Source of the DNA: Verrucomicrobiota bacterium
Lineage (GTDB): Bacteria; Verrucomicrobiota; Kiritimatiellia; CAIQIC01
DNA: 64,000 bases
Direction: 5' to 3'
Assembly (NCBI GenBank): GCA_004321905.1
Contig: SCQF01000046.1
Coordinates: forward strand, 25,614-89,613
In this document: positions 3,099 to 62,339 of the stretch, in pieces
Layout of the letters: every line of letters begins with the position of its first letter
How positions within the stretch are numbered: the stretch's first letter is position 1
Made by a program: the position numbers and the translations under genes
Notes under the pieces: generated by a model
Told to the model about the DNA's origin: nothing
Database searches by the model: none
The model's input: only the letters and a program-made list of their open reading frames with translations

Positions 3099-3989
3099 TC
3101 AGTGTACCGTGGCTCCCTGCATGATGCGATCACAAAGCGCCGCGAAACCCAAGCCCGCGGCGGCGGCGGCCTTGGGCAACAGACTGGTCTCCGTGAAACC
3201 GGGGATCGTGTTCATTTCCAACACAAAAAGTTGATCGTCCGGTGTCAGCCGCAGATCCACACGCCCCAGATCGCGGCAATCGAGCGCGTGAAACACGCGC
3301 CGTGCCAAATCCTGACACCGCGCCGCCTGCTCCGCCGTCAGCGGCGCGGGCACCAGATATTCTGTGCGGCCGGTCGTGTATTTTGCGCCATAGTCATACC
3401 AACCGTCTGGCGCACGAATTTCCACCACCGGCAACACGTCCTCGCCCAACAGTCCGACGGTCAACTCGCGACCCGAAATATAGCGCTCGACAAGCACCGC
3501 GCCGTGTTGCAGCGCATCAGCCAACGCCGCCGTCCAATCGCTTTCCGCACGCACGCAATGCAGCCCAATGCTCGACCCCTGGCAGGCCGGCTTGACCACC
3601 ACGGGCAACGGCAAGCGATGCGCTGCCGGCGCCGATAACACTTCATATTCGGGCGTCGGAATCGAAGCCTCGCCGAATACACGCTTGCTCAGCAACTTAT
3701 CAAACGCTTTCCGGCTCGCCGCGGCACCGGAACCAGTGTACGGCATATTCAGTGCGCACAATTTATCCTGCACGACTCCATCTTCGCCATACGCGCCGTG
3801 CAAGGCCAAAAATACCGCTTCGACATCCGCGGCGAATTTCAATTCGCCATCCTGCGGATCCACTTCCTCCACGGCATACCCCGCCTCGCGCAAGCCGCGC
3901 GCCACCGCCGCGCCGGAGCGCAATGACACCGCGCGTTCCGCCGATGGCCCGCCCATCAAAACCGCAACTTTCTTAAACTTTTTCCCCAT
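3099..3989 (-). CDS. ddl: D-alanine--D-alanine ligase
   Basis: MGKKFKKVAVLMGGPSAERAVSLRSG... ATP-grasp; classic Ddl N-terminus; dcw context. Confidence 0.9.
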   Translation of the reverse strand: MGKKFKKVAVLMGGPSAERAVSLRSGAAVARGLREAGYAVEEVDPQDGELKFAADVEAVFLALHGAYGEDGVVQDKLCALNMPYTGSGAAASRKAFDKLLSKRVFGEASIPTPEYEVLSAPAAHRLPLPVVVKPACQGSSIGLHCVRAESDWTAALADALQHGAVLVERYISGRELTVGLLGEDVLPVVEIRAPDGWYDYGAKYTTGRTEYLVPAPLTAEQAARCQDLARRVFHALDCRDLGRVDLRLTPDDQLFVLEMNTIPGFTETSLLPKAAAAAGLGFAALCDRIMQGATVH

Positions 3990-5397
3990 AAAATTCCTTC
4001 GCCCAAAACGCTATTTTTTCAACATCGCCCGCGCCCACAACCAGCAGCGCGTCGCCGGGTTGCAAAAATCCGCGCAAATAATTCCATGCGGCTTCCAAAG
4101 ATGCAACCTCTCGCGGCCGTAGGCCACCACTTTGTTCAAAATGCCGCGCCAAATCAGCGCTCGTGCCACCCGCCAGTGGCGGCTCCGAGGCTGCATAAAC
4201 CGGCGTGAGCACCACCTCGTCCACGCCGACAAATGCGCCGGGAAAATCCGCGCCCAGCGCCCGCGTCCGCGTGTAGCGATGCGGCTGAAACACCGCCACC
4301 ACCCGCCGCCGCCCCAGTCCGCGCGCCGCCGCGACCAGCGCGCAGATTTCCGTGGGATGATGCGCGTAGTCGGAAATCACCAAAATGTCTGCGGCGTCGC
4401 TGACGATCTCGAAACGCCGACGCGCCGGCGAGAAGCTTTCCAAGCCTTGGAAAAGTGCGGTGACCGGTTTTCCAAGTCTTGGAAAAAGTTCCAGTCCGAC
4501 GGCGCACGCCGCTAGCGCATTCAAAATATTATGCCGCCCCGGCACCGGCAGTCGCACGCGCCCAAGTTTTTCGCCGCGCCACAGCACATCGAAGCTGCTG
4601 GCGAGCGCCGCAAGTTCGATATGCTCGGCGCGCAATTCCGCAGCGGACGAAAACCCAAAAGATAAACCGGTGTTGCCCAACGCCGCGGCGCGTGGATCAT
4701 CGGCACAAAAAATCAGGCGCCGCGCCTGGCGCGCAAATCGGCGGAAACAATCAAACAACTCGCCCTCGCCGTAAAAATGTTCCATATGGTCGAACTCGAT
4801 ATTCGTGATGACGGCGATGTCCGGCGCGTAGAGCGCGAGCGTGCCATCGCTCTCATCGGCCTCGACCACTACGGTGGTACCCTGCCCTACGCCCGCCACG
4901 CCGCCGAGCGCCTCCACCACGCCGCCGATGGCGAAGGCGGGATCGTGTCCGGTCGCCTTGAGCAGTTGCGCGATCATCGCGGTGGTGGTGGTCTTGCCGT
5001 GCGTACCGGCGACGGCGATCGAAAGCGGGAATTCACGAAGCAATGCAGCCAGCACGACGCCGCGCGCGAGCACCGGGAGACCACGCGATGTCGCAGCTTG
5101 CACTTCGGCGGTATCCGCGGCCACCGCCGGCGTACGCACCAGCCAGGCGATGTCCGCCGTTACATGTTCCGTATCCTGGCCAAAATGAACGGTGATACTG
5201 TGGCTCAGCAGCCAGTCGGTGATCCGCGTTGGCGCGACGTCGCAGCCGGAAACTATAAAGCCGCGCGCGGCCAGCAGCCGCGCCAAGCCGGCCATGCCGA
5301 TGCCACCGATGCCAATGAAGTGCACGGCACTCGGATCGCGTTCCAGCAGCCCCCGCGCCGCCGCCAAGTCGCGTTCCAGTTGACTGAAGTCAGGCAT
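3973..5397 (-). CDS. murC: UDP-N-acetylmuramate--L-alanine ligase MurC (carries an in-frame palindromic-element insertion)
   Basis: Mur ligase motifs (HFIGIGGIGMAGLA, DYAHHPTEI). Start set at MPDFSQLER to give a short overlap with murG. The segment LFPRLGKPVTALFQGLESF is encoded by the dispersed palindromic pair at 4437-4487. Confidence 0.9.
   Translation of the reverse strand: MPDFSQLERDLAAARGLLERDPSAVHFIGIGGIGMAGLARLLAARGFIVSGCDVAPTRITDWLLSHSITVHFGQDTEHVTADIAWLVRTPAVAADTAEVQAATSRGLPVLARGVVLAALLREFPLSIAVAGTHGKTTTTAMIAQLLKATGHDPAFAIGGVVEALGGVAGVGQGTTVVVEADESDGTLALYAPDIAVITNIEFDHMEHFYGEGELFDCFRRFARQARRLIFCADDPRAAALGNTGLSFGFSSAAELRAEHIELAALASSFDVLWRGEKLGRVRLPVPGRHNILNALAACAVGLELFPRLGKPVTALFQGLESFSPARRRFEIVSDAADILVISDYAHHPTEICALVAAARGLGRRRVVAVFQPHRYTRTRALGADFPGAFVGVDEVVLTPVYAASEPPLAGGTSADLARHFEQSGGLRPREVASLEAAWNYLRGFLQPGDALLVVGAGDVEKIAFWAKEFYGEKV
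4437..4487. repeat. Paired palindromic dispersed element, in-frame inside murC
   Basis: tttccaagccttggaaaag-N12-ttttccaagtcttggaaaaa. Confidence 0.9.
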
Positions 5398-6511
5398 GGT
5401 CACGCCCGGTTTTTTCCACGAGCCCGGCCAGCGCCTCCGCACCGCAACATTCGCGGTGCGCGTGACCCACGGCGCTCATGCTCGCGAGTTTTTCGCGCGC
5501 CCGATAACGCGCGGCGAGATAATCGGCCAACCACGCCGCTGAAAGATTTTTTTCGGAAACATAATCAGCGGCGCCCAGCCGCGACATAGCCTGCGCGTTC
5601 GCAAGCTGATGATTGGCAGCCGCAAAAGGATACGGCACGAGCAGCGCAGGCACGCCGAAGGCCAGTAATTCCGCGCAGGTCGAAGCACCGGAGCGACACA
5701 CCGCCAGATCGGTCGCCGCATAAAGCTCCGCCATCTGCGTGGTGAAAGCGTGGACGGTATGCGGCACGGCGGCCCGTTCATACGTGGCGCGAATTTCGGT
5801 CTCGTCCGCTGGTCCCGTGAGGTGAATGACCTGAATGGGCACGCCGTCCGCGCGGAGCGCCAGCAAGGCTTCCGACGCGACTTCGTTCAGAGAATGCGCG
5901 CCGCGACTACCGCCCAGCACCATGACCGTGAAACGCTCCGCCGTGGTCACGCGCTGAAAATTGCGACTGGCCACTTCCAACTCGCGGCGCAACGGCATAC
6001 CGGTGATCACCAAGCGACCGTGCGGCAGATAAAACCGCGACGCTTCAAAACTGGCCGCCACCGCGCGCGCCCAGCGCGAAAACAGCCGGATCGTGCGTCC
6101 CGGCACAACATTGGCCTCGTGCAACACCACCGGAACATGGCCGCGCAACGCGGCGTAAATTGGGCCGACGGACGCATAACTGCCCATCGCCAGCAGAACA
6201 TCCGGCGGCTGTGTACGCATTTTTTTTCGGCACACACGCATCGCCCGCAGCAGACTCCACACCGCGGGGATGAAACGCAGCGAGAACCTTGTCGGCAAAC
6301 CCTGCGCGGGGATCGTCACCACCGTACCCGACCAACCGCTGACCGCCGCCGATTCCACATCTTTGCCGGCCAGCCAGAGCGTCACCGTGTGCCCGCTGGC
6401 GCGGAGCACTTCCGCCGTCGCCAAGCCGGGGAAAATATGACCGCCGGTGCCGCCACAGGCCAACGCGATGTGCAGCGGCGCGGAACTCGTTGGATGATTG
6501 TTGGCGTTCAT
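5390..6511 (-). CDS. murG: UDP-N-acetylglucosamine--N-acetylmuramyl-(pentapeptide) pyrophosphoryl-undecaprenol GlcNAc transferase MurG
   Basis: MNANNHPTSSAPLHIALACGGTGGHIFP... (G-loop). The true start is the internal Met at 6509-6511; the longer ORF upstream only reads through a palindromic repeat. Confidence 0.9.
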   Translation of the reverse strand: MNANNHPTSSAPLHIALACGGTGGHIFPGLATAEVLRASGHTVTLWLAGKDVESAAVSGWSGTVVTIPAQGLPTRFSLRFIPAVWSLLRAMRVCRKKMRTQPPDVLLAMGSYASVGPIYAALRGHVPVVLHEANVVPGRTIRLFSRWARAVAASFEASRFYLPHGRLVITGMPLRRELEVASRNFQRVTTAERFTVMVLGGSRGAHSLNEVASEALLALRADGVPIQVIHLTGPADETEIRATYERAAVPHTVHAFTTQMAELYAATDLAVCRSGASTCAELLAFGVPALLVPYPFAAANHQLANAQAMSRLGAADYVSEKNLSAAWLADYLAARYRAREKLASMSAVGHAHRECCGAEALAGLVEKTGRDHA

Positions 6512-7071
6512 GGTGATGCGCTGTTTCCAAGCCTTGGAAAACGTCCCGACCGGTTTTTCCAAGGCTTGGAAACAGCGCGCTCCTTGGTCAGCAAAAACCG
6601 CTTCCACTCCACACCGGCGGAAAATCCGCCGAGTTTTCCGCCCGCAGCGACGACACGATGGCACGGGATAAAAAGCGGCAGCGGATTCACGCCACACGCC
6701 GTGCCCACTGCCCGCGCCGCGCGCGGCGCGCCGATGCGGCGGGCCAGTTCGCCGTACGTGACCGTGACACCCCGCGGAATTTTCTGCAACGCGGTGAGCA
6801 CGCGGGCGGTAAACGCGGTGCGCGCAGCGGGTTTGAGCGGCGGCAACGTGGAGGGTTCCCGACCACGCAACCAGACGCGGAGGCAGCGTTCGGCTTGGCG
6901 CAGAACGACACAATCCGCCGGTGTTGGGCAGTGTAGGCGGACGGTTGTCACGCGCAGCGCCAAGTGGCCCCGCGGCACCGGCAACGTGCAGCTCGTCAGC
7001 GCACCGGCCTGGGCCTGTACACCGATGACGCCCCACGTAGTGACAAGGTCGAGCCGGGACGATGCAGTCAT
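6508..7071 (-). CDS. ogt: Methylated-DNA--protein-cysteine methyltransferase (Ogt/Ada C-terminal domain family)
   Basis: PCHRVV active-site motif with the surrounding HTH. The C-terminal tail (KPWKNRSGRFPRLG) is read through the palindromic element at 6524-6572. Confidence 0.75.
   Translation of the reverse strand: MTASSRLDLVTTWGVIGVQAQAGALTSCTLPVPRGHLALRVTTVRLHCPTPADCVVLRQAERCLRVWLRGREPSTLPPLKPAARTAFTARVLTALQKIPRGVTVTYGELARRIGAPRAARAVGTACGVNPLPLFIPCHRVVAAGGKLGGFSAGVEWKRFLLTKERAVSKPWKNRSGRFPRLGNSASP
6524..6572. repeat. Paired palindromic dispersed element (ogt 3' end / murG upstream)
   Basis: tttccaagccttggaaaa-N12-tttttccaaggcttggaaa. Confidence 0.9.
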
Positions 7072-9088: not shown

Positions 9089-9137
9089 CTCCAAGGGTTG
9101 GGAAAAGTGAACGTGCGGTTTTCCAAGCCTTGGAAAA
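9089..9137. repeat. Paired palindromic dispersed element (first unit degenerate)
   Basis: ctccaagggttgggaaaag-N10-ggttttccaagccttggaaaa. Confidence 0.85.
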
Positions 9138-9142
9138 CACCG

Positions 9143-12100
9143 TTATTCTGTTTTTTTCACCGGAGGGTTGTCGAGAATTTTGCGGACGGCGCCGAGCAGC
9201 GCGCTCAGCGGATAGGGTTTTTGCAGGAAGTGGAAACCTTTTTCTTCGATGGCGGCCCAGCGTGACCGTTCATCGGTGTAGCCGCTGCATAGGAGCACCG
9301 GTAAACCAGGCTGCTGGGCGAGAATTTTTTCGCTCAACTCGATGCCGTTGCCGTCGGGCAGCACGACATCGCTAAAGAGCAGATCAAACCGATGATCAGC
9401 ATGAGGGCAAGCCTGCACCGCTTCCTGCGCCGATGCGCAGGCGACGATGCTATAGCCGGCGGAGCGCAACACCTGCGCGGCCAAGGTGCGCACGCCCGGC
9501 TCGTCTTCCACCAACAGAATGCGCTCGCCATGACCATGCAGCGCCGCGGCCACAGGCGCGCCACCCTCCTCGTCCAGAACAGGGTCAACGCCGACATAGA
9601 CCGGCAGGTAGAGCTTGAAGGTGGTACCATGGCCGATTTGGGTAGACACATTGATCCAACCGTTATTTTGTTTGGCGACGCCATAACTGACGGCGAGGCC
9701 CAAGCCCGTGCCCTTGCCTTCCTTTTTGGTCGTAAAAAATGGCTCAAAAATGTGGGCCAATACGTCGGAACTCATGCCTGTGCCGGTATCGGAAACGGCC
9801 AGACAGACGAACCGGCCGCGGCGTACTTCGCGCATCACGGTTTTGTCCTGCCCCTCAAACTCCACGGTGGTCGTGCAAATGGTCAGCCGACCACCGTTGG
9901 GCATAGCGTCGCGGGCGTTGACGGCCATGTTCATGATGTATTGATCCATTTGCGCAGGATCAACCTTGACGCGCTTGAGCGCCGGGTCGAGTTGGGTTTC
10001 GAGTTCAATATCTTCGCCGAGCAAGCGGCGCAGCATTTTTCCCGTGCTGGTCACGACTTGATTCAAGTCCAGTACGCGCGGCGAAACCGCCTGCTTACGG
10101 CTAAACGCGAGCAGTTGCCGGGTCAAATCGGCCGCCCGCAAGGCCGCTTTCTGGATTTCGTGCAAATCATGCCATTGTGGATTCTGTTGGTCGGTGTCCG
10201 TGAGCAAAATTTCGGTGAAACCCAAAATTGCTTGCAACAAATTGTTGAAATCGTGGGCGACGCCGCCCGCCAGCCGGCCGATGGCGTCCATTTTCGAGGC
10301 CTGCTGGATTTGCTGTTGCATCTCCATCTCGTGGGTGATGTCGCGGGAGATGCCGACGAGGCCGCTGATCTGTCCCGCTTGATCCTTGATGGGTACCTTG
10401 GTAATGGAACTCCAGTGAACTTGGCCATCCGGCTGTACGACTTGTTCGACCTTGGCGATCAACGGTTGGCCGGTTTGCAAAATATGCTTTTCATCCGCAA
10501 AGATTTCCTGTGCGCGCTGGGGCGCCTGGAATTCAAAATCGGTACGCCCAATGACAGCCCTTGGATGCGTCAGCTTCAAATAGGTGGCGTGTGCCCGGCT
10601 GATCTTGGTGAAGCGAAGTTCACTGTCTTTGAAGTATACCTTGTCGGGGATGTTATCCATCAGGGCATAGAGCAGATTGCGCTCCTGAAGCACAGCCTCT
10701 TCTGCCTGTTTACGCGCGGTAATATCAACAATGGACCCCTCTAAGACACCTTGTTCACGATAAAGTTTTGCAGAAATAAGGCAGTCGCGCGCCTCCGCTT
10801 GTTTGTTCAGCATTTTGCATTCAAAATCCACCACGCGGCCATCGGTTTCGAGTTGGCGGACCATCTTTTCCCGCTCACGCGGATCGGCCCAATATATCAC
10901 CCCTTTTGAACCCAACAGCTCCTCCCGCGTACGGCCAAAAATCTCCAAATATTTCCTGTTCATGTCTAAAATCTGGGAACCATCCAGTTTCCCCCTGAAC
11001 ATACCCACCTCGGCATTGTCGAACAGGTTCCGAAACTTCTCCTCGCTCTGGCGCAACGCTATGACGGCCTGTTTTTGAGCCGTGATATCGCGGGCCACAT
11101 GCACGCTGCCGATGAGCTTGCCGGTGGCATCAAAAATCGGGTCGCAACTGATCAGGTAATCACCGCCCAGCTTGGATTCATGCACCTCCAATTCGTGAGA
11201 CTGGCCGTCCTTCATCAATTGGGCGTGCGGACAATGGTCAATCGGACAGATGGTACCATGAAGACATTCGTAACACGGACGTCCGCGGACCGCGTCTGGC
11301 GGTATCCCGATTTTATTTATCAACGCTTTGTTGGCACGCACAATACGATGATTCATGTCATGGATGGAAATCAGGTCCGGTACGGCATCGAACGTGCGTT
11401 CCCAATCTTCTTTGGCGCGAATCAATTCCGTTTCCGCGTACTTGGTCAGATAATCAAAATGGCTCACGAGCGCCTGCCGTTCTTGCACCACCGCCATTTG
11501 ACTCCGAAAAAAAATCTTTTTCTGGCGCTGATCCCAAGCCAACCAGATCAAACCCGGCATGACGAGCAACAACAGCCCCAGCAAGCCGGCAATTCGGGTG
11601 CGAAAACGAAGTGGGGCATAAATTTCTTCGGCATCCACCTTGGCGACCATGAACCACGGCGAATCCGGCACCCGCCGCGTGATGCTCAGCACGGGCACTT
11701 CACGATAATCCACGCCTTCGAAAACACCTTCGACGCCACGCACGACCAATGCGGCGGGAAGATTTGTTTTTGTGAGCGGATAGCGCAGCGCCAAAGCCGT
11801 GTTTTTTCGATGACGCAGCTCATTCAAAAACAAGACATCGCTGCCATCACGTCGCACCAACAGCGTTTCCGCCGAAGCACTGGACATCGGCCACGACTGA
11901 ATCAACGGGTACAGATATTCGTTGGGGTCTATGTTCATCAGGACCACGCCAACGCACTGCGTGGTCGCGCCACCAACCGCGGGCAACAGCAAAGGCGTAA
12001 ACAGGCTGAGATGAATCTCCCGCTCCCCATCATCGCAATAGAGATCGGATAGGTAGGCGTGGCGGGATCGCACCACCTCGGCAACCAGCTTGCGGCTGTT

Positions 12101-12585: not shown

Positions 12586-12634
12586 TTTCCAAGCCTTGGA
12601 AAAGTCCAGCCTCGGTTTTTCCAAGGCTTGGAAA
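12586..12634. repeat. Paired palindromic dispersed element (2 x TTTCCAAG[G/C]CTTGGAAA, 14-nt spacer)
   Basis: ctttccaagccttggaaaag-N-tttttccaaggcttggaaa; member of the ~20-copy family. Confidence 0.9.
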
Positions 12635-12722: not shown

Positions 12723-12798
12723 GGGGGGTTAGCTCAGTTGGGAGAGCGCCTGAATGGCATTCAGGAGGTCGGGAGTTCAACTCTCCTACCCTCCACCA
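12723..12798 (+). tRNA. tRNA-Ala (anticodon GGC)
   Basis: Hand-folded cloverleaf: acceptor GGGGGGU with a G3:U70 wobble (the Ala identity element), anticodon loop AUGGCAU, T-loop TTCAACT, encoded CCA. Confidence 0.9.
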
Positions 12799-15831: not shown

Positions 15832-15908
15832 GTGCCTGTAGCTCAACTGGATAGAGCGTTGGCCTCCGAAGCCAAAGGTTGTGGGTTCAACTCCCGCCAG
15901 GCACACCA
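15832..15908 (+). tRNA. tRNA-Arg (anticodon CCG)
   Basis: Hand-folded: acceptor GUGCCUG/CAGGCAC, D-arm GCUC...GAGC, anticodon stem UUGGC/GCCAA, loop CUCCGAA, T-arm GUGGG-UUCAACU-CCCGC, encoded CCA. 77 nt. Confidence 0.88.
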
Positions 15909-16240: not shown

Positions 16241-16291
16241 TTTTCCAAGGCTTGGAAAATTGAAACGACGCTTTTTCCAAACCTTGGAAAA
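16241..16291. repeat. Paired palindromic dispersed element
   Basis: gttttccaaggcttggaaaa-N12-tttttccaaaccttggaaaag. Confidence 0.9.
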
Positions 16292-19300: not shown

Positions 19301-19912
19301 CCGCCGTTGCGCCGCTATCCCGCACTACTGGAATTCGCCTTCGGTTCCGGCCAAGGTTGCGAGAAGTCCGCCGTGACGTTCGTCCATCCCGATGATCCCG
19401 TCAGCCGCTTGCGCGTCCACGGCAAGTTGGATCGCGTGGACTTGCTGGCCGATGACGACGGCGTCATCCGCGCGATGACGGTTGTGGACTACAAGGGCGT
19501 GAGCAAGAGCGGACTCCAAGCGGAAGAGCTGGCCGCAGAAATCATCGCCGCCCGTAATTGCCAATTGCCGGTCTATGGCCTCGTTGCACAGGCGACCTTC
19601 GGCGATGACCTCCCGTTGCTCTTGCAATATCTGCCGTATCGCGGCGACTTCAGCGAAATCCTCAAGCAAACGCCAAAGCGCTGGATCGCGCTCACCGGCG
19701 AACCGGTGGACTCCACCACGCTCGCCGAATTGATCGGCACACCGCAAACGCCCCTGATGGCGGCTTTCGCGCGGCGTATTTTCCAATGCTTGGAAATTCT
19801 TGAGCACGGTGATTTCCGTGCCGCGCCGCAAGCATGCGAACACTGTGAATTCCGCGGCTGCTGCCGTTACACCGCACCGGCGCTGGAAGGCGAAACAGAA
19901 GAAGGAGCGTAG
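16322..19912 (+). CDS. addB: AddB-like helicase-nuclease subunit (inactive-helicase-like N-terminal region, C-terminal PD-(D/E)XK nuclease with Fe-S cysteines)
   Basis: 1196 aa upstream of a UvrD-type helicase-nuclease. Nuclease motifs: ATCPYKYYLQ, DYKGVSK, and the terminal Cys cluster CEHCEFRGCC (CxxCx4C). No Walker A found. Contains the in-frame heptamer array at 17461-17530. Confidence 0.72.
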   Translation: MTGRRSESVLVVHPTSLALRQLQRRTLTHVGFFDARGHITFAGLLNSCAEAARQAGLLAGRRSASDLDYEMLLLETAQQFRAKSAAQQGPLAALAQQALEDTLDQLIAFLAPLADRIADALAILARGTPKNRALATLYQEFQAAANAMDVSTEADENAAILRLLRGDCTAWPAVLHEATAVRFVAVRAITPMLESVSHALVGKPGGTQVQIEHILEEHEQEWWGEKFLAGSCRLLFGTESAAEDAACHAAQTWSVVTSLREAYAMRDPGLAAEARTNVGFSCSAGLYGEVEDLARRICWELEQPDAHLRPEEIALVVPNVGQYADAIADVFQRFQLPYHFRRGNAVLAAPVTQAILRLLEVRATRSRDAFCALLESPWLKWERIQETEYRSQKPEVTEQLSAIRYPPSALADSIRRAGIEPEMPEAAVLALRVRNFLLAKRPPATDAQAIGDFAAQVFRLLYDKNSERRPLTKLCNQLISELRQTFGVEGQVRQFLQNSFASDDLTRQAALFNSRALTAVIAQLETLGKHKAETTMTWAELLALLRRVLRNVTVAAGSADESGVWVLNPHDAAGLHFRVTLIAGLNAGRFPALPAPSPVFSDAELRQLREALTALPQTALAPSVARRSQDNLLFLTTLATASERLVFSYQSRDETGEELQPSICFATAWRLAGWPSWEKLPSQPPDPYDRWRLKVAPEIFREFWEAARNGKDLPIWQRKPFHGESFLATRPLALCRAADEARQQAARSLAECRSPAPAGRPADAVSELVARSLTMEAERTRIFTQQALQPNQPPEHGTRFVGSITAQTWQQVRPKPRTIPDFSATELETLATCPYKYYLQRVLHLEALKTNEQEATPLALGSLVHRVMHHALLLLRGDPPPPDAPAVLADIRHGFADLCRPAFAVQTTDHPWRIMVKGPGRPVVQFQPDKTEHYAEFMAAVANAELEAEEQALASMMLGAIEQRGVVRTNLIAGCNNLLRLSLQPAEFDKSMLPPLRRYPALLEFAFGSGQGCEKSAVTFVHPDDPVSRLRVHGKLDRVDLLADDDGVIRAMTVVDYKGVSKSGLQAEELAAEIIAARNCQLPVYGLVAQATFGDDLPLLLQYLPYRGDFSEILKQTPKRWIALTGEPVDSTTLAELIGTPQTPLMAAFARRIFQCLEILEHGDFRAAPQACEHCEFRGCCRYTAPALEGETEEGA
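17461..17530 (+). repeat. Heptamer tandem-repeat array ((NNNNCAG)x6 followed by (CTATCCG)x3), in-frame inside addB
   Basis: gaataCAGgagaCAGaataCAGaagtCAGaagcCAGaggtCAc...ctatccgctatccgctatccg; related to the arrays flanking the four-helix-bundle gene at 31243-31690. Confidence 0.8.
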
Positions 19913-20017: not shown

Positions 20018-23000
20018 ATGAGCGTAACCTTCAAAATCCAATTCAGCGCTTCCGCCGGCACGGGCAAGACCTATCAGGTGACGCAGCTCTATCTCGCCCT
20101 TGTGCTGGGCCACCCCTATCCCAAGGAAGCCGGCGAACTGATCGGAATCGCACCCGGCACGATTCATCCCGGCGGAGAACCGCTGCCATGCGAAAAGATT
20201 CTGATGCTGACCTTCTCGCGTAATGCCGCCGCCGAGTTACGGCAGCGCATCACCGCGGGCATCGAAGAGGCGCGCGCTGACGCGGAAGCCAAGCACAACG
20301 ATGAAATCGCTGCGCGCTGCTGGAATTTGCTGCATCGCCTGCCCGCCGCCGACATCTCCACCATCCACGCCTACGCGCAGCGCCTGGTGGAACAGCACGC
20401 CCTGCGGCTCGGCCTCTCGCCCGCCTTCAGCATCCTCGATGAGGACGCGGCCTCCGATTTACGTCAGGAAATTTTCGAGGCCGCATTGCACGACGCACTG
20501 GAAAACGGCAACGATGCCGACCACGCCACACGGGAGGCGCTCTGTGCCGGGCGCGGCGCAAGCGAAGTTCTCGGCGCGCTGCAAGCGTTACTGCAAAACA
20601 CACGCAGTCTTGGTCTGCGGCTGGAAAACATGGACCTTGCGGGACTGGTCGAGCAGCCCGCGCCGCCAACGCTCGAACGATTGCGCCAGTTACGGACGCA
20701 ACTCGCCACCGCCAACGGCCAGAACAAGCGCGGCAAAGCGCCACAAATTTTAGCTGACTTGGATGGCTTGCTTGCCACTGCGACCATGAATGCCGATATG
20801 GTTGCGCTAGCCGCCCATGTCGCGGAACTGGCCGAAGGACAATGGGGAAAAGATAATCCCGCGCTTTCCGCGACACGCGACGCGTTGCAGCACTTCGGGG
20901 CCTATGCCGAGCACCGCCGCGCCGCCGATGCGCTCCCGCCCTTGCTCCACCTCGTAAAAAGCGCGGCGCAGCGTTACGAAAACGCCAAGCGCGAACGCGC
21001 CGGGCTGGACTTCGACGATCTCCTGCTGCTCGCGCGCGACCTCGTGATGCACCACGCCGAGGCGCTGCCGCCCATCACCGCGATCATCGTGGACGAGGCG
21101 CAGGACAACTCGGCACTGCAAAACGAATTTATCCGCGGACTCCAAGCCGCACGCTCTGCCGCGCTCGCGCTCTGCGGCGATTGGAAGCAGACCATCTACG
21201 CTTGGCGTAACGCCGATCCCCAAGGTTTGGAACGACTCGCCAAGGAAACCAAATTACGCGGCGTACCATTGCGTCAGAGCTTCCGTAGTCAGCAGGGCGT
21301 GCTCGACTGGATCAACGACTTCTGTCGTGGCGTACTCTTTGACGAGGCCTACCGCGCTGACGACGAATTGCTGCCCTGTCCACGCGCACTGGCCACCGAA
21401 CCACCCAACATCGAGCTGCTCCTGCCGGAATGGGAACTGCAACCCGACCCGTTCGAGCCCGTTGGTAGAAAAATGCGGCTGGAACTCTCACCCACCGACT
21501 TGAAGCGGCTGGCCAAAGAAGAAAGTTTTCAAGGTTCGGAAAAACCAGCGAACGGAGTTTCCAAGAATTGGAAAACTGTGCTCGCACAGTCGGAACAAGC
21601 AATCGCGCTGGAAGCACGCGCCCTTGCCCGACGTATCGAACTTCTCACCGCTGGTCCGGCTTCCAGCGCGGCGGTTTCCAAGGTTTGGAAAAATGGTAGC
21701 TGGAGCCAACCGGAGTCGCCGCCGTACCGCCGCCGCGACATTCTGATTTTGCTCAAAGCCACCAGCCGGCAGGAAATTTATGAAGCCGCGCTACGCGAAC
21801 GCGGCATTCCGTACACGACCGACGGTAAAGGGCGCGGCTTCCTGACGCGGCAGGAAGTACAGGACATCGCCAGCCTGCTCTCATGGCTGGCGTTCCGAGA
21901 TGACCTCGTCGCGCTGCTCGCGGTCGCACGCTCGCCGTTCTGCGCGCTTTCCGATGAAGTGCTGGCCGTACTCGCGCAGGGCAGCAACGCCACAAACTTG
22001 GCCATCGCGCTGACCGGCGTGGATACCACCGCCGCGACGGCGCGACTCGCCGAATTGGGCTTGGCTGCGGAAGCGCCGACGTTTGCGCACGCGGTGGAAT
22101 TCTTCCGCCGGATGCGGCTGCTGGCCGGGCGACTCCCACCCGTGGAACTGGTGCGCGAAGCCATCCGGCTGACCGGCTTCGATGCCACACTCGCCGGCTC
22201 GTTCCACGGCGCGCAGCGGCTCGCCAACCTCAAAAAATTGCTCTCGTGGATTGAGACGCACGAACGCAGCGAAGGCCTCGACCTCGCGGGCGTCGCACGC
22301 TGGCTGACCACCGAAATTGAAAATGGCGAGGATCGGCCCGATGCGCCCGTACTCGATCCGCAGGACGACGCCGTACGCATCAACACCGTCCACGCCGCCA
22401 AGGGCCTGACCAGTCCGGTGGTTTGTTTGCCGGACCTGCGGCGTATCCCGGCCCCGGATCAGCAATGGCTTCTGCCCCACCCGACCGCCACGGGCTTGAC
22501 CATTGCGGCCAAGCTGAAAACACGCCAGCCGGACTTGCCCGACGCGCCGGAATGGAATACCAGCGATTTCGAGAATGCCAAGGACGCGGTCAAAACCTCG
22601 CGCACCGCCGAAGACCAGCGGCTCTTTTATGTGGCCGCGACGCGTCCGCGCGATCTGTTGGTATTCTCGGGCGAGAATGCGCATCGCACTGCGACGTGGC
22701 GCGGCGCGCTCAACCACTATCTGCTCGCCGACTCCGAACGCGCGCTGCGCCTGATGACATTGCGCGATTACCGCCAGTTGGAAGAGGAATGGCGCGCGGC
22801 GGGACTGGCCGCACCACGCACCGTACCTGCCGGCGAGATCAGCGCGACGCAACTGGCCGAGCAAACCGCCCTGCCCGAGCGCCCGCCACACCCGGAACTC
22901 TACCGCTATTCGGCCACGCTGCTTGCCAGCGTGCCGACGACCGATGACCCCGCCGCGCTACGGGAATTTATCGAGGAAGATTTGGCTGGGTTGCAAACGC

Positions 23001-23659
23001 CGCACTCCACGCGCCGCGCCGCCGCCACAGAGGATAGCCGCGCGGAGCGTATCACTACCGGCGTACGCGCCCATGCCGCGCTACGCGCCGCGCCGCTCCA
23101 AGACAGTCAACCCGCCACACCGAAGACGGCCACAGCCAGCGCCTTGGCGTGGCTGCGGAAAAACTGCGGCGACCTGCCGCCCGCTCACGTACTGCGCGAA
23201 CTGCCGTTCGTCGCCCGCTTTTCGCACGATGGCGCGGTGGCGCTGGTGGATGGCGCGGCGGATTTGGTTTTCTGGCGCAACGGCGCGTGGCACATCGTGG
23301 ACTATAAATTCACCGAGCAAACACCGGACGAATTGCGGCAGCGCTACGCCTTGCAACTGGCAATCTATGCCGCCGCGCTCTTCACGCCCGATGGGCTGCC
23401 GCGTTTTGCCCACACAACGAATAGCGGCGCCCTCGGAGAGGCCGCTCTACCGAAAAAAGGTAGGGTGCGTTCTCCGAACGCGCCGTCTTTGAAATTGAGC
23501 TTGCTGCGTTGCAGCCGCGATTTCCAATGTTTGGAAATTCCGTTTGCTGATTTTCCAAGCCTTGGGAAAACCGCCGCCGCCGTCATTGCCACCGCCCGCA
23601 TCCTGCGTAAGTTCCAACCAAGTGGAATCAGCACCGATTTTTCAGCCCGGCGGGATTAG
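20018..23659 (+). CDS. addA: AddA/RecB-type ATP-dependent helicase-nuclease (UvrD-like helicase plus C-terminal PD-(D/E)XK nuclease)
   Basis: Walker A (SASAGTGKTY), UvrD helicase motifs, C-terminal nuclease (IVDYKFTEQ...YALQLAIYAAAL). Palindromic-element units are inserted in-frame at 21527-21576 and 21674-21693 (SFQGSEKPANGVSKNWKT, AVSKVWKNG). The C-terminal tail is read through the element at 23521-23570. Confidence 0.85.
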   Translation: MSVTFKIQFSASAGTGKTYQVTQLYLALVLGHPYPKEAGELIGIAPGTIHPGGEPLPCEKILMLTFSRNAAAELRQRITAGIEEARADAEAKHNDEIAARCWNLLHRLPAADISTIHAYAQRLVEQHALRLGLSPAFSILDEDAASDLRQEIFEAALHDALENGNDADHATREALCAGRGASEVLGALQALLQNTRSLGLRLENMDLAGLVEQPAPPTLERLRQLRTQLATANGQNKRGKAPQILADLDGLLATATMNADMVALAAHVAELAEGQWGKDNPALSATRDALQHFGAYAEHRRAADALPPLLHLVKSAAQRYENAKRERAGLDFDDLLLLARDLVMHHAEALPPITAIIVDEAQDNSALQNEFIRGLQAARSAALALCGDWKQTIYAWRNADPQGLERLAKETKLRGVPLRQSFRSQQGVLDWINDFCRGVLFDEAYRADDELLPCPRALATEPPNIELLLPEWELQPDPFEPVGRKMRLELSPTDLKRLAKEESFQGSEKPANGVSKNWKTVLAQSEQAIALEARALARRIELLTAGPASSAAVSKVWKNGSWSQPESPPYRRRDILILLKATSRQEIYEAALRERGIPYTTDGKGRGFLTRQEVQDIASLLSWLAFRDDLVALLAVARSPFCALSDEVLAVLAQGSNATNLAIALTGVDTTAATARLAELGLAAEAPTFAHAVEFFRRMRLLAGRLPPVELVREAIRLTGFDATLAGSFHGAQRLANLKKLLSWIETHERSEGLDLAGVARWLTTEIENGEDRPDAPVLDPQDDAVRINTVHAAKGLTSPVVCLPDLRRIPAPDQQWLLPHPTATGLTIAAKLKTRQPDLPDAPEWNTSDFENAKDAVKTSRTAEDQRLFYVAATRPRDLLVFSGENAHRTATWRGALNHYLLADSERALRLMTLRDYRQLEEEWRAAGLAAPRTVPAGEISATQLAEQTALPERPPHPELYRYSATLLASVPTTDDPAALREFIEEDLAGLQTPHSTRRAAATEDSRAERITTGVRAHAALRAAPLQDSQPATPKTATASALAWLRKNCGDLPPAHVLRELPFVARFSHDGAVALVDGAADLVFWRNGAWHIVDYKFTEQTPDELRQRYALQLAIYAAALFTPDGLPRFAHTTNSGALGEAALPKKGRVRSPNAPSLKLSLLRCSRDFQCLEIPFADFPSLGKTAAAVIATARILRKFQPSGISTDFSARRD
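21527..21576. repeat. Paired palindromic dispersed element (degenerate), in-frame inside addA
   Basis: ttttcaaggttcggaaaaa-N11-gtttccaagaattggaaaac. Confidence 0.8.
21674..21693. repeat. Single palindromic unit, in-frame inside addA
   Basis: gtttccaaggtttggaaaaa. Confidence 0.8.
23521..23570. repeat. Paired palindromic dispersed element at the addA 3' end
   Basis: tttccaatgtttggaaa-N13-ttttccaagccttgggaaaa. Confidence 0.85.
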
Positions 23660-26107: not shown

Positions 26108-26158
26108 CTTTCCAAGGTTTGGAAAATCTGCCGGTTACTTTTTCCAACCCTTGGAAAA
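26108..26158. repeat. Paired palindromic dispersed element
   Basis: ctttccaaggtttggaaaa-N12-tttttccaacccttggaaaa. Confidence 0.9.
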
Positions 26159-29142: not shown

Positions 29143-29189
29143 CTTTCCAAGGTTTGGAAAACCGAAAGCACACTTTTTCCAAGCCTTGC
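29143..29189. repeat. Paired palindromic dispersed element (second unit truncated)
   Basis: ctttccaaggtttggaaaa-N13-tttttccaagccttg. Confidence 0.85.
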
Positions 29190-31620: not shown

Positions 31621-32316
31621 TCACCGTTCTCCTCCCGTGTTCTGTATGCTGCCTCCTGTCTGCTGTGTTCTGTTTGCTGCTTCCTTTTTCCCAAACTGAA
31701 ATCTACTTTCTGTCCCCGTCATCAACCGCTGGATATTCGCCTTATGCCGAAAAACCACCAGCAAGCCTAGCAGCGTCAGCACAATCGGCGTGAGCAACTC
31801 TTGTCCACGATATAACCACCACCCCGCCGCTGGCACCACCAGCGCCGCACCCATCGAAGCGAACGAAACGTAACGTGAAGTCAGAAACAAAACCAGCCAG
31901 CCCAACACGCCGACGCCCACCGCCGCCGGTGCGACGCCGATCAACACGCCCGCGCTGGTCGCCACGCCCTTGCCGCCTTTGAATTTGAGATAGACCGGAA
32001 AATTGTGTCCCAAAATCGCGGCGACGCCACAGAGCAGTCCGAAGGAATTTTCCAAGCCTTGGAAAACCGGGATATCCGCTTTTCCCAGCATTGGAAAAAC
32101 CAACACTGGCACGAGGCCTTTCATCGCATCCAACGTGAAGGTGAGGATGCCCCACCCTTTGCCGACGCTACGGAAAACGTTGGTCGCACCGATATTCTTG
32201 CTGCCAACGGTACGGATATCCACGCCCTTGAGTCGTCCGATGAGCAGACCGAACGGAATCGCGCCCACCAGATAAGCGCCCGCCAGCCAGCCAATGAAAT
32301 TGAGCCATGCGTTCAT
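31621..32316 (-). CDS. plsY: Glycerol-3-phosphate acyltransferase PlsY (in-frame palindromic-element insertion)
   Basis: YLVGAIPFGLLIG...ILGHNFPVYLKFKGGKGVATSAGV are PlsY motifs. The loop FPMLGKADIPVFQGLENSFG is encoded by the element at 32048-32099. The C-terminal tail is read through the heptamer array. Confidence 0.85.
   Translation of the reverse strand: MNAWLNFIGWLAGAYLVGAIPFGLLIGRLKGVDIRTVGSKNIGATNVFRSVGKGWGILTFTLDAMKGLVPVLVFPMLGKADIPVFQGLENSFGLLCGVAAILGHNFPVYLKFKGGKGVATSAGVLIGVAPAAVGVGVLGWLVLFLTSRYVSFASMGAALVVPAAGWWLYRGQELLTPIVLTLLGLLVVFRHKANIQRLMTGTESRFQFGKKEAANRTQQTGGSIQNTGGER
31625..31690 (-). repeat. Heptamer array, inverted relative to 31243-31290, at the 5' flank of the four-helix-bundle gene
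   Basis: Plus strand reads CTGTATGCTGCCTCCTGTCTGCTGTGTTCTGTTTGCTGCTTC. The reverse complement is (NNNNCAG)x5 including acaggaggcagcatacagaa, close to acaggagacagaata at 31263-31277. Confidence 0.75.
32048..32099. repeat. Paired palindromic dispersed element, in-frame inside plsY
   Basis: ttttccaagccttggaaaa-N13-ttttcccagcattggaaaaa. Confidence 0.9.
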
Positions 32317-32404
32317 CGGCGCGATTGGATAGCACAACGACGCGCGTCCGGCGAGTTCCTTTTGACCCGCTTATTTTGGATAAGAAATTGTTTTAGCACA
32401 TCCG

Positions 32405-35576: not shown

Positions 35577-35627
35577 TTTTCCAAGGCTTGGAAAATGGAA
35601 AGTGATGTTTTTCCAGACCTTGGAAAA
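35577..35627. repeat. Paired palindromic dispersed element (purA-uppS intergenic)
   Basis: gttttccaaggcttggaaaa-N13-tttttccagaccttggaaaag. Confidence 0.9.
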
Positions 35628-42057: not shown

Positions 42058-42107
42058 TTTTCCAGGGCTTGGAAAATTTTTCCGCGCTTTTTCCAAACCT
42101 TGGAAAA
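42058..42107. repeat. Paired palindromic dispersed element
   Basis: ttttccagggcttggaaaa-N11-tttttccaaaccttggaaaa. Confidence 0.9.
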
Positions 42108-43225: not shown

Positions 43226-43279
43226 TTTTCCGAGGCCTGGAAAGCGGATGTTCGTATTTTTCCAAACCTTGGAAAAAAA
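43226..43279. repeat. Paired palindromic dispersed element (first unit degenerate)
   Basis: tttttccgaggcctggaaag-N12-tttttccaaaccttggaaaaaaa. Confidence 0.8.
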
Positions 43280-46826: not shown

Positions 46827-46846
46827 TTTTTCCAAGCCTTGGAAAA
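46827..46846. repeat. Single palindromic unit (between convergent amidase and dus genes)
   Basis: tttttccaagccttggaaaa. Confidence 0.9.
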
Positions 46847-49460: not shown

Positions 49461-49537
49461 TGGTGGGCCTGGTAGGGCTCGAACCTACGACCAAAGGATT
49501 ATGAGTCCTCCGCTCTGACCAACTGAGCTACAGGCCC
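49461..49537 (-). tRNA. tRNA-Met (anticodon CAU; elongator-type or possibly tRNA-Ile2)
   Basis: Hand-folded on the minus strand: acceptor GGGCCUG/CAGGCCC, D-arm GCUC-AGUUGGUCA-GAGC, anticodon stem GAGGA/UCCUU, loop CUCAUAA, T-arm GUAGG-UUCGAGC-CCUAC, encoded CCA. Confidence 0.85.
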
Positions 49538-49871: not shown

Positions 49872-51008
49872 TCAAACCAATTCGGCAAAAACACGATCGC
49901 TAATGAACAGGCTGCGCTCTGTCAGGCGCAAGCGTCCGGATTCCAATTCCAACAGCTCCAAAGCAAGCAGGCGCGGCACGGCATCGCCACCGAGGGCCAG
50001 CGCATCGAACCCCGTCTGTTGCCGAAAAACCGCGAGCTCCACGCCATTGAGCAGGCGTAAGCCCACGATCAGTGTTTCACGCGCCTTGGCTTCCGGCGCC
50101 AGTTGTTCCTCAAAATCACAGGGCGACCGCCCGTTCGCGATGCGCCGGCAATACTCGTCCAAATCTTCAATGTTGGATCGCCGCCGCCCGGCCACATGCG
50201 CGTGCGCCGCCGGCCCACAGCCGAAGTACTCGCCACCGCGCCAGTAGTTCAGATTATGCAAACATTCACGGCCCGGTCGCGCAAAGTTGGAAATTTCATA
50301 GTGCTGAAAACCTGCGCTTTTCATTTCGCGGCGGATCGCATGATATTGCTCGGCCTGCACCTCGTCCGGCACCTCGACAACTGCGCCGCGCGCACATTGC
50401 GCCGCCAGCGGCGTATCGGGCTCAACGGTGAGCGCGTAACAAGAGATATGGTCAGGCTGCCACGCCAAGAGCCCATGCAAGTCATTCAACACCGCGTCCG
50501 TTGTTTTGCCCGGTAGCGCGTACATCAAATCCACGCTCACGTTCTCGAACCCCGCCGTGCGGAGCAGTTCAAAACTCATCCGTGCATCGGCGGCGGTATG
50601 GATACGACCCAGCCGCTCCAGCATCGCATCGTCGAGCGTCTGCACGCCAAGCGATGCGCGGTTCATGCCGGACGCCCGCAGCAAGTCCGCCTTCGCCGGC
50701 GTCAGCGTCCCGGGATTTACCTCCACCGTCCATTCGCGCACCGCGGCACGCCGCACCTGTGGACGTAATAGGCCGAGTAAATTTTCCAATTGCCGCTGCG
50801 ACAAGGCCGTCGGTGTGCCGCCGCCGATAAAAAGGGTATCGGGCGCGAAGTTCACGGGCAGGGCTGCGAGTTCCTTTTCCAAGGCTTGGAAAAAGTCGGC
50901 GATCCGTTTTCCAAGGCCTGGAACTTTTGCGGCCAGCGGCAGCGAATAAAAACCGCAATAGACGCATTTGCTTTCGCAAAACGGAATATGGAGATACAGC
51001 CCGGCCAT
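49872..51008 (-). CDS. hemW: Radical-SAM heme chaperone HemW / oxygen-independent coproporphyrinogen-III-oxidase-like protein (in-frame palindromic-element insertion)
   Basis: MAGLYLHIPFCESKCVYCGF radical-SAM CxxxCxxC. The segment AKVPGLGKRIADFFQALEKE is encoded by the element at 50876-50924. Confidence 0.85.
   Translation of the reverse strand: MAGLYLHIPFCESKCVYCGFYSLPLAAKVPGLGKRIADFFQALEKELAALPVNFAPDTLFIGGGTPTALSQRQLENLLGLLRPQVRRAAVREWTVEVNPGTLTPAKADLLRASGMNRASLGVQTLDDAMLERLGRIHTAADARMSFELLRTAGFENVSVDLMYALPGKTTDAVLNDLHGLLAWQPDHISCYALTVEPDTPLAAQCARGAVVEVPDEVQAEQYHAIRREMKSAGFQHYEISNFARPGRECLHNLNYWRGGEYFGCGPAAHAHVAGRRRSNIEDLDEYCRRIANGRSPCDFEEQLAPEAKARETLIVGLRLLNGVELAVFRQQTGFDALALGGDAVPRLLALELLELESGRLRLTERSLFISDRVFAELV
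50876..50924. repeat. Paired palindromic dispersed element, in-frame inside hemW
   Basis: cttttccaaggcttggaaaaa-N12-tttttccaaggcctggaa. Confidence 0.9.
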
Positions 51009-52092: not shown

Positions 52093-52144
52093 TTTTCCAA
52101 TGATTGGAAACATATGAACGACCTTTTTCCAAGCCTTGGAAAAG
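52093..52144. repeat. Paired palindromic dispersed element
   Basis: tttttccaatgattggaaa-N14-tttttccaagccttggaaaag. Confidence 0.9.
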
Positions 52145-53141: not shown

Positions 53142-53218
<77 letters not shown>

Positions 53219-54237: not shown

Positions 54238-54256
54238 TTTTCCAAGGCTTGGAAAC
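54217..54256. repeat. Palindromic element (degenerate unit ttttcctttcggaaaa plus canonical unit)
   Basis: ggttttcctttcggaaaac...ttttccaaggcttggaaac. Confidence 0.7.
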
Positions 54257-56748: not shown

Positions 56749-57738
56749 ATGCTCTTCGGATCATCCAAGTCTGCCACAACTTCCGAAATGCCGACGGAAA
56801 AAATCAAAGTCGGCGTGGTTGGCGTCGGCGCACTCGGCCAACACCATGCGCGGATTTACTCCGAATTGCCGGAAGCCCAACTGGTGGGTGTCTATGACGT
56901 GGATGCCGGGCGTGCGAGTTCCATAGCTCGGAAATTCGGCGTTGCGGTTTTCCAAACCTTGGAAAGCCTGGTCGAGCAGTGCGAGGCTGCGAGCGTCGTG
57001 GTGCCCACCGACCGCCACCGCGAGATCGCCGGACTGCTGCTGGAGCACGGCCTGCACTTGCTCGTGGAAAAGCCGATTGCCGCCACCACCGCCGAGGCCG
57101 AGGCACTCGTTCAGTTGGCCGAGGCGCGTAATCTCATCTTGCAGGTCGGCCATGTCGAACGCTTCAATCCGGTGTTGGGCTTTCTCGATAGCCTGCAAAA
57201 GCCGCCACGCTTCATTGAGGCGCACCGGCTGGCCCCCTACCCTCCCCAGCGCGAAGGTCTCCCGCCGCGCGGCACCGAGGTCAGCGTTGTACTCGACCTG
57301 ATGATCCACGACCTCGAAGTGATTCTGCACCTCGTCCGCTCGCCGGTGAAGGCGATCCACGCCGTCGGCATTCCGGTTTTGAGTCCGACGGAAGACATCG
57401 CCAACGTGCGCTTGGTCTTTGAGAACGGCTGTGTCGCTAACGTCACCGCGAGTCGCATCAGTCCCGAGAAGATGCGGAAGATTCGCACCTTCTTTCCCGA
57501 TTGCTACGTCTCGCTCGATTATCAAGAGCAGAGTGGTCAAATCTACCGCAAGGACGGCGCAAACATCACCCGCGACAAGATTGAGATTGCGCGCGGCGAG
57601 CCGCTCGCCAACGAATTGCGCGCCTTCGTCCGTTGCGTTGCCGAGCGCGGCCAGCCGGTGGTCAGCGGCGCGCACGCCGCGGAGGCCCTCAAACTTGCGG
57701 TCGCCATCATGCACCGTATCCGCGAGGGCGCGTCGTGA
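56749..57738 (+). CDS. Gfo/Idh/MocA-family NAD(P)-dependent oxidoreductase (between lpxI and lpxB)
   Basis: IKVGVVGVGALGQHHARIY Rossmann fold, EKP motif. One palindromic unit is inserted in-frame (GVAVFQTLESLVEQ) at 56947-56966. Confidence 0.85.
   Translation: MLFGSSKSATTSEMPTEKIKVGVVGVGALGQHHARIYSELPEAQLVGVYDVDAGRASSIARKFGVAVFQTLESLVEQCEAASVVVPTDRHREIAGLLLEHGLHLLVEKPIAATTAEAEALVQLAEARNLILQVGHVERFNPVLGFLDSLQKPPRFIEAHRLAPYPPQREGLPPRGTEVSVVLDLMIHDLEVILHLVRSPVKAIHAVGIPVLSPTEDIANVRLVFENGCVANVTASRISPEKMRKIRTFFPDCYVSLDYQEQSGQIYRKDGANITRDKIEIARGEPLANELRAFVRCVAERGQPVVSGAHAAEALKLAVAIMHRIREGAS
56947..56966. repeat. Single palindromic unit, in-frame inside the Gfo/Idh/MocA gene
   Basis: gttttccaaaccttggaaag. 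Confidence 0.85.
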
Positions 57739-62288: not shown

Positions 62289-62339
62289 TTTTCCAGGGCT
62301 TGGAAAAAGTGATCGTTTCGTTTTCCAAGCCTTGGAAAT
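62289..62339. repeat. Paired palindromic dispersed element
   Basis: cttttccagggcttggaaaaa-N12-gttttccaagccttggaaa. Confidence 0.9.

Follow-up and report, generated by a model that had tools for sequence, protein, structure and literature searches.

In a 64-kb stretch of Kiritimatiellia DNA (contig SCQF01000046.1; its 64,000 nucleotides are hereafter called the window), a short palindrome recurs between genes and, read through in frame, within murC, plsY, hemW and a GnnA-like Gfo/Idh/MocA oxidoreductase gene. From our comparison with orthologues we lean, at somewhat better than even chances, toward a repeat family that is maintained at the level of the DNA and whose in-gene members formed largely in place, with insertion or duplication as a second mode. 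The genes and copies on which the analysis is centered are the following:

3973..5442, minus strand: murC, UDP-N-acetylmuramate--L-alanine ligase, annotated product of 474 residues
4438..4484, minus strand: pair in murC, units at 4438-4452 and 4470-4484, 32-bp period
31621..32337, minus strand: plsY, acyl-phosphate:glycerol-3-phosphate acyltransferase (Pfam PF02660)
32050..32096, minus strand: pair in plsY
49872..51008, minus strand: hemW, radical-SAM haem chaperone family (Pfam Radical_SAM and HemN_C)
50877..50923, minus strand: pair in hemW
56749..57738, plus strand: Gfo/Idh/MocA oxidoreductase gene (GnnA-like), between lpxI and lpxB
56950..56964, plus strand: single unit TTCCAAACCTTGGAA in the GnnA-like gene

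With up to two mismatches allowed, the window contains 34 copies of the 15-nt palindrome TTCCAAGNCTTGGAA, whereas 0.18 occurrences are expected from 100 dinucleotide-preserving shuffles, none of which (0/100) reached 34. A position-frequency table yields a consensus of approximately T(T)TTCCAAGSCTTGGAA(A)A, which CGG/CCG extends weakly on the outside: Each unit is a perfect dyad around a one-nucleotide center, flanked by a T-run and an A-run, and measures 15-20 bp (19-20 bp in its extended form), while a pair of units spans 47-51 bp. A unit contains no stop codon in any of its three frames (0/3), which spell FQxLE, SKxWK and FPxLGK, respectively; a period of 32 bp moves the reading on to the next frame and thereby dictates the order FPxLGK, FQxLE, SKxWK, with which the genes agree. 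In thirteen loci of the window the units form pairs spaced at a period of 31-32 bp, and several of the units that look single possess a degenerate partner. When the window and its relatives are taken together, the period is 32 bp in 29 and 31 bp in 13 of the adjacent pairs (42/44), the loci comprise one to five units, and single units make up 21 of 56 loci. About 60% of the window units are located in the approximately 15% of the window that is non-coding. An earlier reading of the window from its sequence alone (the sequence-only reading) had reported such an over-represented palindrome in frame inside genes of the essential type, and the four read-through genes it named are indeed real genes according to Pfam, with coordinates and quoted peptides that proved exact.

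The same reading had further proposed that each pair adds 16-17 residues to its protein and the single unit 7, and that alignment with orthologues would reveal clean indels of this size. To compare lengths, we took the 120 best homologues per protein (MurC, HemW, PlsY) and measured each segment from one flanking invariant motif to the other. In the murC pair, the units TTCCAAGCCTTGGAA and TTCCAAGTCTTGGAA, both perfect palindromes of 15 nt, follow each other at a distance of 32 bp; the pair encodes FPRLGK-PVTAL-FQGLE (residues 320-335). The corresponding segment is 31 residues long in the window, 27 residues long in 89 of 91 motif-less orthologues, and 31-124 residues long in motif-bearing relatives, so that the net gain amounts to four residues and not to 16-17. 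In a MAFFT alignment, GKPVTALFQGLESF is placed on the native 14-residue pattern G-x-P-F-E-x-V-R-x-G-L-x-x-F, of which G-L-x-x-F lies under one palindrome, and the extra residues FPRL are left over.

In HemW, the pair encodes VPGLGK-RIAD-FFQALE (residues 29-44) after the CxxxCxxC motif, and the segment comprises 43 residues in the window, 36-49 in motif-less orthologues, and 38-44 in motif-bearing relatives; the nearest motif-less clade (P0259-P0262) has 43-44 residues, which leaves the window without any gain in length. Here FFQALEKEL aligns to native R-Y-L-D-A-L-E-R-E-L, the stretch VAR-FFQALEKEL being homologous position by position to IAR-YLDALEREL, and the native residues under one palindrome are Y/F-L-x-A-L-E. 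The plsY pair encodes FPMLGK-ADIPV-FQGLE (residues 81-96) in the turn between the second and third transmembrane helices (TM2-TM3). Its segment of 35 residues, compared with 28-41 (mode 33) in motif-less orthologues and 33-41 in motif-bearing relatives, falls inside the normal range of a variable loop, and FPMLGK overlies a native F-P-M-L that is found in the motif-less locus L001 and in L003. The single unit of the GnnA-like gene (extended DNA match CGGTTTTCCAAACCTTGGAAA) encodes FQTLE at residues 68-72, in a well-aligned Rossmann segment: The protein is gap-free against PDB entries 7bvj, its best solved relative, 3uuw and 3e18 as well as against 60 representatives (indel = 0), and the native F-x-[ST]-[LMI]-E-x-L simply reads FQTLESL in the window. 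Consequently, no clean indel is seen in the Gfo gene and HemW, largely none in PlsY, and one of four residues in MurC, and the figure of 16-17 describes the span that a pair encodes, not what it adds. Because one unit coincides with ancestral residues in every gene, the copies look overprinted rather than inserted.

The genomic surroundings of the GnnA-like gene deserve a separate remark: Between 55915 and 58871 the order is lpxI, GnnA-like gene, lpxB, and an LpxC-like gene is located at 47907-48935. The GnnA-like gene hints at a lipid A of the GlcN3N type.

The affected proteins stay intact, as had been claimed. The murC product, a 100% match to P0001, contains all of Mur_ligase, Mur_ligase_M and Mur_ligase_C (Pfam) and matches PDB 2f00 at 5e-84; the plsY product matches G3P_acyltransf (PF02660) at 3.6e-55 and PDB 5xj5 at 1.7e-40; the hemW product is a 100% match to P0241. 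An AlphaFold model of MurC has a predicted local distance difference test score (pLDDT) of 93.7 and template modeling (TM) scores of 0.87-0.93 to 1p3d, and a model of PlsY has a pLDDT of 87.7 and a TMt of 0.81 to 5xj7. In the MurC model, FPRL ends a helix (303-323), GKPV forms a four-residue loop, and TALFQGLE lies in the helix 328-335; in the PlsY model, helix 60-88 (end of TM2) is followed by a three-residue turn (89-91) and by helix 92-112 (start of TM3). The proposal that the copies sit in surface loops thus holds for a turn of three to four residues, but most motif residues belong to the flanking helices. Likewise, the suggested analogy to the Rickettsia palindromic elements (RPEs) stands as far as the in-frame reading is concerned and fails for a clean insertion of a whole 47-51-bp pair into surface loops.

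Evidence on the level at which the copies are held comes from synonymous sites. Among repeat-bearing orthologues with 57-74% protein identity, 59 of the 62 codons at identical residues inside the palindromes are themselves identical, whereas outside the palindromes the same comparison gives 44-58%, or about 53% (binomial ~2e-12). The frozen codons include rare ones (CCA 12%, CTT 8%, GGA 9%), and the probability of obtaining the palindrome from codon usage is 0.044 for FQxLE and 2e-4 for FPxLGK. In repeat-poor or repeat-free relatives, 13 of 20 codons inside are identical, which equals the background. The repeat-poor locus L165, for instance, has kept FFQALEKE with the codons CAG/GAG/CCC AGC GTG GGT while its first unit has decayed; L168 shows PALPGLAN in a segment of equal length, and L167 shows FFHALEKE. 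Moreover, motif-less orthologues lack the residues Q, K and G that occupy motif positions, and the in-gene copies sit at the same residue positions in orthologues. These comparisons show that the in-gene copies are old and that they decay by point substitution in relatives without the family. Since synonymous codons are frozen and the peptide is kept where the DNA motif is lost, the codon comparison indicates that in genomes with the family the constraint acts on the DNA, including synonymous sites, and not on the protein. In plsY, the synonymous sites of the pair have stayed frozen in four genomes, among them L170 (pair at 10218-10264) and L171 (6796-6842), the latter with the variant dyad TTCCAATCATTGGAA twice: Between these two, all ten codons inside the palindromes are identical (10/10), compared with a fraction of 0.42 outside, and their loci of 17-20 kb hold no copy besides the plsY pair. 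L171 also contains a ComEC gene, which is uninformative on competence.

The family is lineage-restricted. Among the matches listed in searches by PlsY and HemW homology, loci were fetched from many phyla (80 from genomes and 80 from metagenomes), and the motif is carried by one of the 80 genome loci (L003, Kiritimatiellaeota NIOZ-UU71) and by two of the 80 metagenome loci (L081, L082). The matches listed in the PlsY genome scan are mostly from distant phyla, with five Kiritimatiellia-like loci of which only L003 has the motif, and the HemW metagenome scan contains three close relatives. Targeted look-ups added four carriers (L163, L164, L166, L169) with 0.3-0.7 units per kb, and the nearest named relatives of the window proteins are metagenome-assembled genomes (MAGs) of Kiritimatiellaeota/Kiritimatiellae; at 100% identity, the proteins match those of an NCBI MAG labelled 'Verrucomicrobia bacterium'. 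Across 2.9 million viral contigs no copy of the pair is present, and single units are as frequent as chance predicts. Four close relatives with 69-80% protein identity, namely L161 and L167 (Logan SRR260844xx), L168 and L165, are devoid of palindromes or nearly so in the DNA that was fetched, and would be natural controls for identifying the gene or genes behind the family. Arrays of three to five units with a 31-32-bp period and unrelated spacers are seen in L082 (6272-6382), L166 (6924-7063 and 20606-20714) and L164 (10913-11053); one such array lies within the murC of a relative, and their look of a miniature CRISPR array is superficial. A Kiritimatiellae MAG (L004, MH-Pat, 20.6 kb) lacks the TTCCAAG palindrome and carries a different, abundant repeat with the core TAACTGACGGATCCAGG, six copies in 20 kb.

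With regard to the direction of change, neighbor-joining trees place the motif-less MurC P0005 at the base of the repeat-bearing clade, which would fit a gain of the motif after the P0005 split, and place the partly decayed HemW proteins P0251 and P0256 inside the repeat-bearing clade, which would fit a loss in these two. We also considered whether the MurC of L161, in which the 9-mer CAACCTTGG is present, is a decayed element. Since the 14 residues of this protein conform to the native pattern P-[FW]-[DE]-x-[MV]...L-x-x-F and since it branches basal to the repeat-bearing clade, the ancestral state is preferred, although this still is uncertain.

Beyond the four genes, further copies are read through by open reading frames (ORFs) or lie between genes. 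In the following list, no strand is assigned to copies outside genes:

6525..6571, minus strand: pair at the ogt/murG junction, read through by the ogt-like ORF and the long murG ORF
9121..9135: intergenic unit; its partner at 9089 is degenerate
12587..12633: intergenic pair with divergent genes on either side
16243..16289: intergenic pair upstream of addB
19781..19795, plus strand: single unit in the AddB-like gene, encoding FQCLE
21527..21573, plus strand: degenerate pair in the AddA-like gene, encoding FQGSE...SKNWK
21676..21690, plus strand: single unit in the AddA-like gene, encoding SKVWK
23522..23567, plus strand: pair in the AddA-like gene, close to its C-terminus, 31-bp period, encoding FQCLE...FPSLGK
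26110..26156: intergenic pair between glgB and a rhamnosidase gene
29145..29159: unit at the rhamnosidase ORF's 5' end; its partner at 29177 is degenerate
35579..35625: pair flanked by purA and uppS
42060..42105: pair with a period of 31 bp, downstream of ahcY
43228..43274: intergenic pair
46830..46844: single unit downstream of dus
52095..52141: pair in the short region from which an Rce1-like gene (minus strand) and a class-IV aminotransferase gene (plus strand) diverge
54240..54254: single unit directly after trmB
62291..62337: intergenic pair adjoining a tRNA gene

The aminotransferase ORF may reach with its 5' end into the pair at 52095-52141. A scan of the window with Rfam found five tRNA genes (12723-12795, 15832-15905, 49464-49537, 53142-53215, 62165-62236) and no family matching the repeat; the tRNA genes at 15832-15905 and 62165-62236 lie at most a few hundred bases from the pairs at 16243-16289 and 62291-62337.

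The read-through copies have consequences for annotation. The ogt/MGMT-like ORF (6508-7071, minus strand; PF01035 in relatives) lacks a stop where its relatives end (...KERAL* or ...KERAS*) and reads on through the pair at 6525-6571, gaining 22 residues (VSKPWKNRSGRFPRLGNSASP); the ORF overlaps the start of murG. The longest murG ORF (5390-7036, minus strand, 548 residues) crosses the same pair in a third frame (FQALEKPVGTFSKAWK); its Glyco_transf_28 domain begins at residue 190, and the long version is an artefactual N-terminal extension and an annotation hazard. Four further in-frame loci are found in the AddB-like and AddA-like helicase-nuclease genes, where the SKVWK of AddA aligns to native KVYD of Bacillus subtilis AddA beside a six-residue gap. 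In about 18,000 window residues, FQxLE occurs six times, SKxWK three times and PxLGK four times, and all of these (13/13) are encoded by palindromes. The expectation of odd peptides is thereby borne out, and mis-extended ORFs come in addition: In practice, the repeat family is a systematic source of annotation errors, in that N-termini are falsely extended, a stop codon is lost and odd peptides turn up.

How might such copies arise and persist? We infer the direction of change, an in-place mechanism and recognition by a dimeric protein from these sequence comparisons, and picture the process as follows. The in-gene copies would have formed largely in place by substitutions or by short patches of at most 12 nt, not by pasting of a 47-51-bp element; the substrate would be codons that already spell part of a half-site at the right spacing, and the outcome a change of zero to a few residues. 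The maintaining force would operate genome-wide and on the DNA. We prefer a model in which each dyad would be recognized by a protein that binds or processes DNA and is itself symmetric (dimeric), the dyads being phased cooperatively at three helical turns, and in which copies would persist through selection or through a drive, either biased conversion or one of the uptake type. Only tentatively, as a possible but rather doubtful step further, do we propose that an undescribed Kiritimatiellia process writes 19-20-bp dyads in a 31-32-bp phase into existing DNA with unchanged length and keeps them letter-perfect while the system is present, that its sites include conserved helices of essential enzymes, and that it works by templated short-patch conversion or an uptake-type drive and not by transposition.

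Several observations weigh against formation in place under a genome-wide force. To create a 15-19-nt palindrome in place, about six or more substitutions per unit are needed, which demands a strong drive, and no obvious candidate for a DNA-binding protein or methyltransferase is found in the window. The direction, gain or loss, is read from neighbor-joining trees only, and the comparison with the motif-less HemW outgroup was made on protein. The lone frozen plsY pair in L170 and L171 is more easily reconciled with a role specific to this gene than with a force acting across the genome; it is an oddity for which none of the explanations accounts. Finally, an insertion or duplication mode also exists, given the length gains in MurC and between ogt and murG: The MurC site of relatives holds three to five units and is longer by up to 97 residues (in L164 it reads FQGLE...FPKVEK...FPRLGK...SKPWK...FQALE), and the ogt-murG spacer measures 19 nt in the repeat-free L161 and 88 nt with the pair in L163. 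These gains (about 69 nt in the intergenic case, a MurC site longer than in 89/91 motif-less orthologues) would be expected from a classical event of the RPE, REP (repetitive extragenic palindromic) or MITE type, in which ~50-bp pairs were transposed in, later deletions trimmed the proteins, and tolerant sites survived. The in-gene spacers with weak family-typical CCGG/GTGA features would also agree with it, as would the documented intragenic REP dimers encoding 20-30 residues (PMC3733652), with AddA/AddB accounting for four loci here. Such transposition would, however, require an exactly compensating deletion in hemW and in gnnA, where the indel is zero, and would leave the coincidence of one unit with homologous native residues unexplained. 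No transposase, including RAYT (the Y1/HUH type associated with REPs), was recognized by Pfam among the ~50 ORFs of the window or in the called genes of the fetched loci, a screen that covered only part of the genome; RAYTs are single-copy genes. No duplicated flanks that would mark a target-site duplication are visible at the 13 pairs in the window, and no conserved spacer is seen. We therefore regard transposition followed by trimming as unlikely. For copy-paste of whole pairs or for tandem duplication, shared spacers would be expected; the spacers between units (12-17 bp) are unrelated, with a weak enrichment of GTGA and CCGG. Across orthologues the spacers are saturated.

A gene-specific RNA element, with the two units of a pair forming an mRNA stem of ~15-19 bp that serves processing, stability or a translational pause, notably in plsY, would be attractive in view of the plsY pair frozen in four genomes, two of them (L170, L171) without another copy nearby, and of the location of most intergenic copies within co-directional gene strings, where they are probably transcribed. 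Against this speaks that the two units of a pair have complementary centers in no more than 23 of 44 cases, the excess seen in the window alone (10/13) having vanished with more data, and that dyad variants are almost never compensated (at positions 7/9, 3 compensated versus 60 uncompensated). These two results argue against a conserved hairpin and for independent recognition of half-sites, and they disfavor a long inter-unit hairpin as in REPINs (REP doublets) or RNA. Single units are common, an inter-unit stem would not need self-palindromic units, and Rfam offers no matching family; altogether, an RNA element appears improbable. Still less credible is the notion that FPxLGK and FQxLE are ancestral or functional peptides and the DNA palindrome incidental, which the codon analysis has largely refuted. 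Native parts of the motifs do exist, namely F-P-M-L (PlsY), A-L-E (HemW, MurC) and F-x-T-L-E (GnnA), and L165 has FFQALEKE without the DNA motif, but about 13 intergenic loci of the window hold the same DNA motif, synonymous sites are frozen with rare codons in use, and the motif residues Q, K and G are missing from motif-less orthologues. That the read-through is an artefact of assembly or sequencing can be practically dismissed: The same sites and the same architecture recur in independent assemblies from four sources (NCBI, JGI, ENA, Logan), which excludes sequencing error, and the structural models are confident. We remain with a family held at the DNA level whose in-gene copies would largely have been overprinted onto existing codons.

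The origin and spread of REP-like repeats is an open question, and Di Nocera, De Gregorio and Rocco asked explicitly in 2013 whether de novo formation of REPs is ongoing (PMC3733652). The present system provides natural experiments on this point: Orthologous sites with and without the motif display zero change (gnnA, hemW), four additional residues (murC), or up to five units (murC of relatives), and in sister genomes the DNA motif decays while the peptide stays, so that insertion and in-place conversion can be tested against each other by ancestral reconstruction. Repeat-rich and repeat-free sisters, in turn, point to a DNA-level function or drive that can be found by comparison.

A literature search with the repeat sequence returned no relevant match, and the family is best described by comparison with known systems. 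By anatomy, it is REP-like without the GTAG/CGTC tag. REPs are short palindromic units in high copy number, mostly between co-directional genes; they frequently form dimers whose spacers differ in sequence and are similar in length, and intragenic REPs are most numerous in the verrucomicrobium Opitutus terrae, often in recombination and repair genes (PMC3733652). The high-copy, mainly extragenic short palindromes typical of the REP/BIME class (20-40 bp), dimers or clusters with characteristic spacing, and wholly intragenic copies, including those in AddA/AddB, are shared. In place of the unpaired terminal tag, GTAG or CGTC, by which two super-families have been described, however, our units have T-run and A-run flanks; they are perfect dyads phased at 31-32 bp in arrays of up to five, and they add zero to four residues in genes, compared with the 20-30 reported for REPs (PMC3733652). 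RPEs of Rickettsia share the in-frame palindromes in functional housekeeping genes and the orthologous sites in related species, but measure ~100-150 bp, are similar along their whole length and contribute tens of residues as discrete insertions (PMC10969869, PMC3733652), whereas here the unit has 15-20 bp, the spacers are unrelated, the net gain is zero to four residues, and the taxon is not Rickettsia. REPINs are doublets of REPs that form hairpins, in which one arm has to pair with the other, its inverted copy (Bertels and Rainey 2011, PMC3116915); the common doublet, vertical persistence and apparent decay in lineages losing the system are similar, but each of our units is self-symmetric, and the arms are complementary only by virtue of self-palindromy. 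MITEs (70-300 bp with terminal inverted repeats of 15-30 bp and target-site duplications) differ from a pair of ~50 bp without duplicated flanks, and CRISPR, characterized by long arrays in which 23-47-bp repeats alternate with spacers measuring 26-72 bp, and by cas genes, differs from repeats of 15-20 bp with spacers of 12-17 bp in arrays of at most five units, some of them in genes.

In the overprinting in place and the holding of synonymous sites, the family seems closer to uptake signal and DNA uptake sequences (USS/DUS; PMC2817400) and to HIP1 (PMC5861425). With USS/DUS it shares a density of about one per 1-2 kb, occurrence in coding and non-coding DNA, lineage specificity, inflated encoded peptides, and apparent in-place accumulation without indels at compatible residues (GnnA-like gene, second unit of HemW), yet USS/DUS have asymmetric cores of 9-12 bp (Findlay and Redfield 2009, PMC2817400) and not phased palindrome pairs and arrays. 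HIP1, the highly iterated palindrome of cyanobacteria, an octamer (GCGATCGC) that shows no short-range phasing and is associated with cognate orphan methyltransferases (Xu, Lawrence and Durand 2018, PMC5861425; Elhai 2015, PMC4390886), is likewise hyper-abundant within and between ORFs and conserved between genomes beyond coding constraint; the family described here has a different sequence of 15-20 bp, a 31-32-bp phasing and a strong intergenic enrichment.

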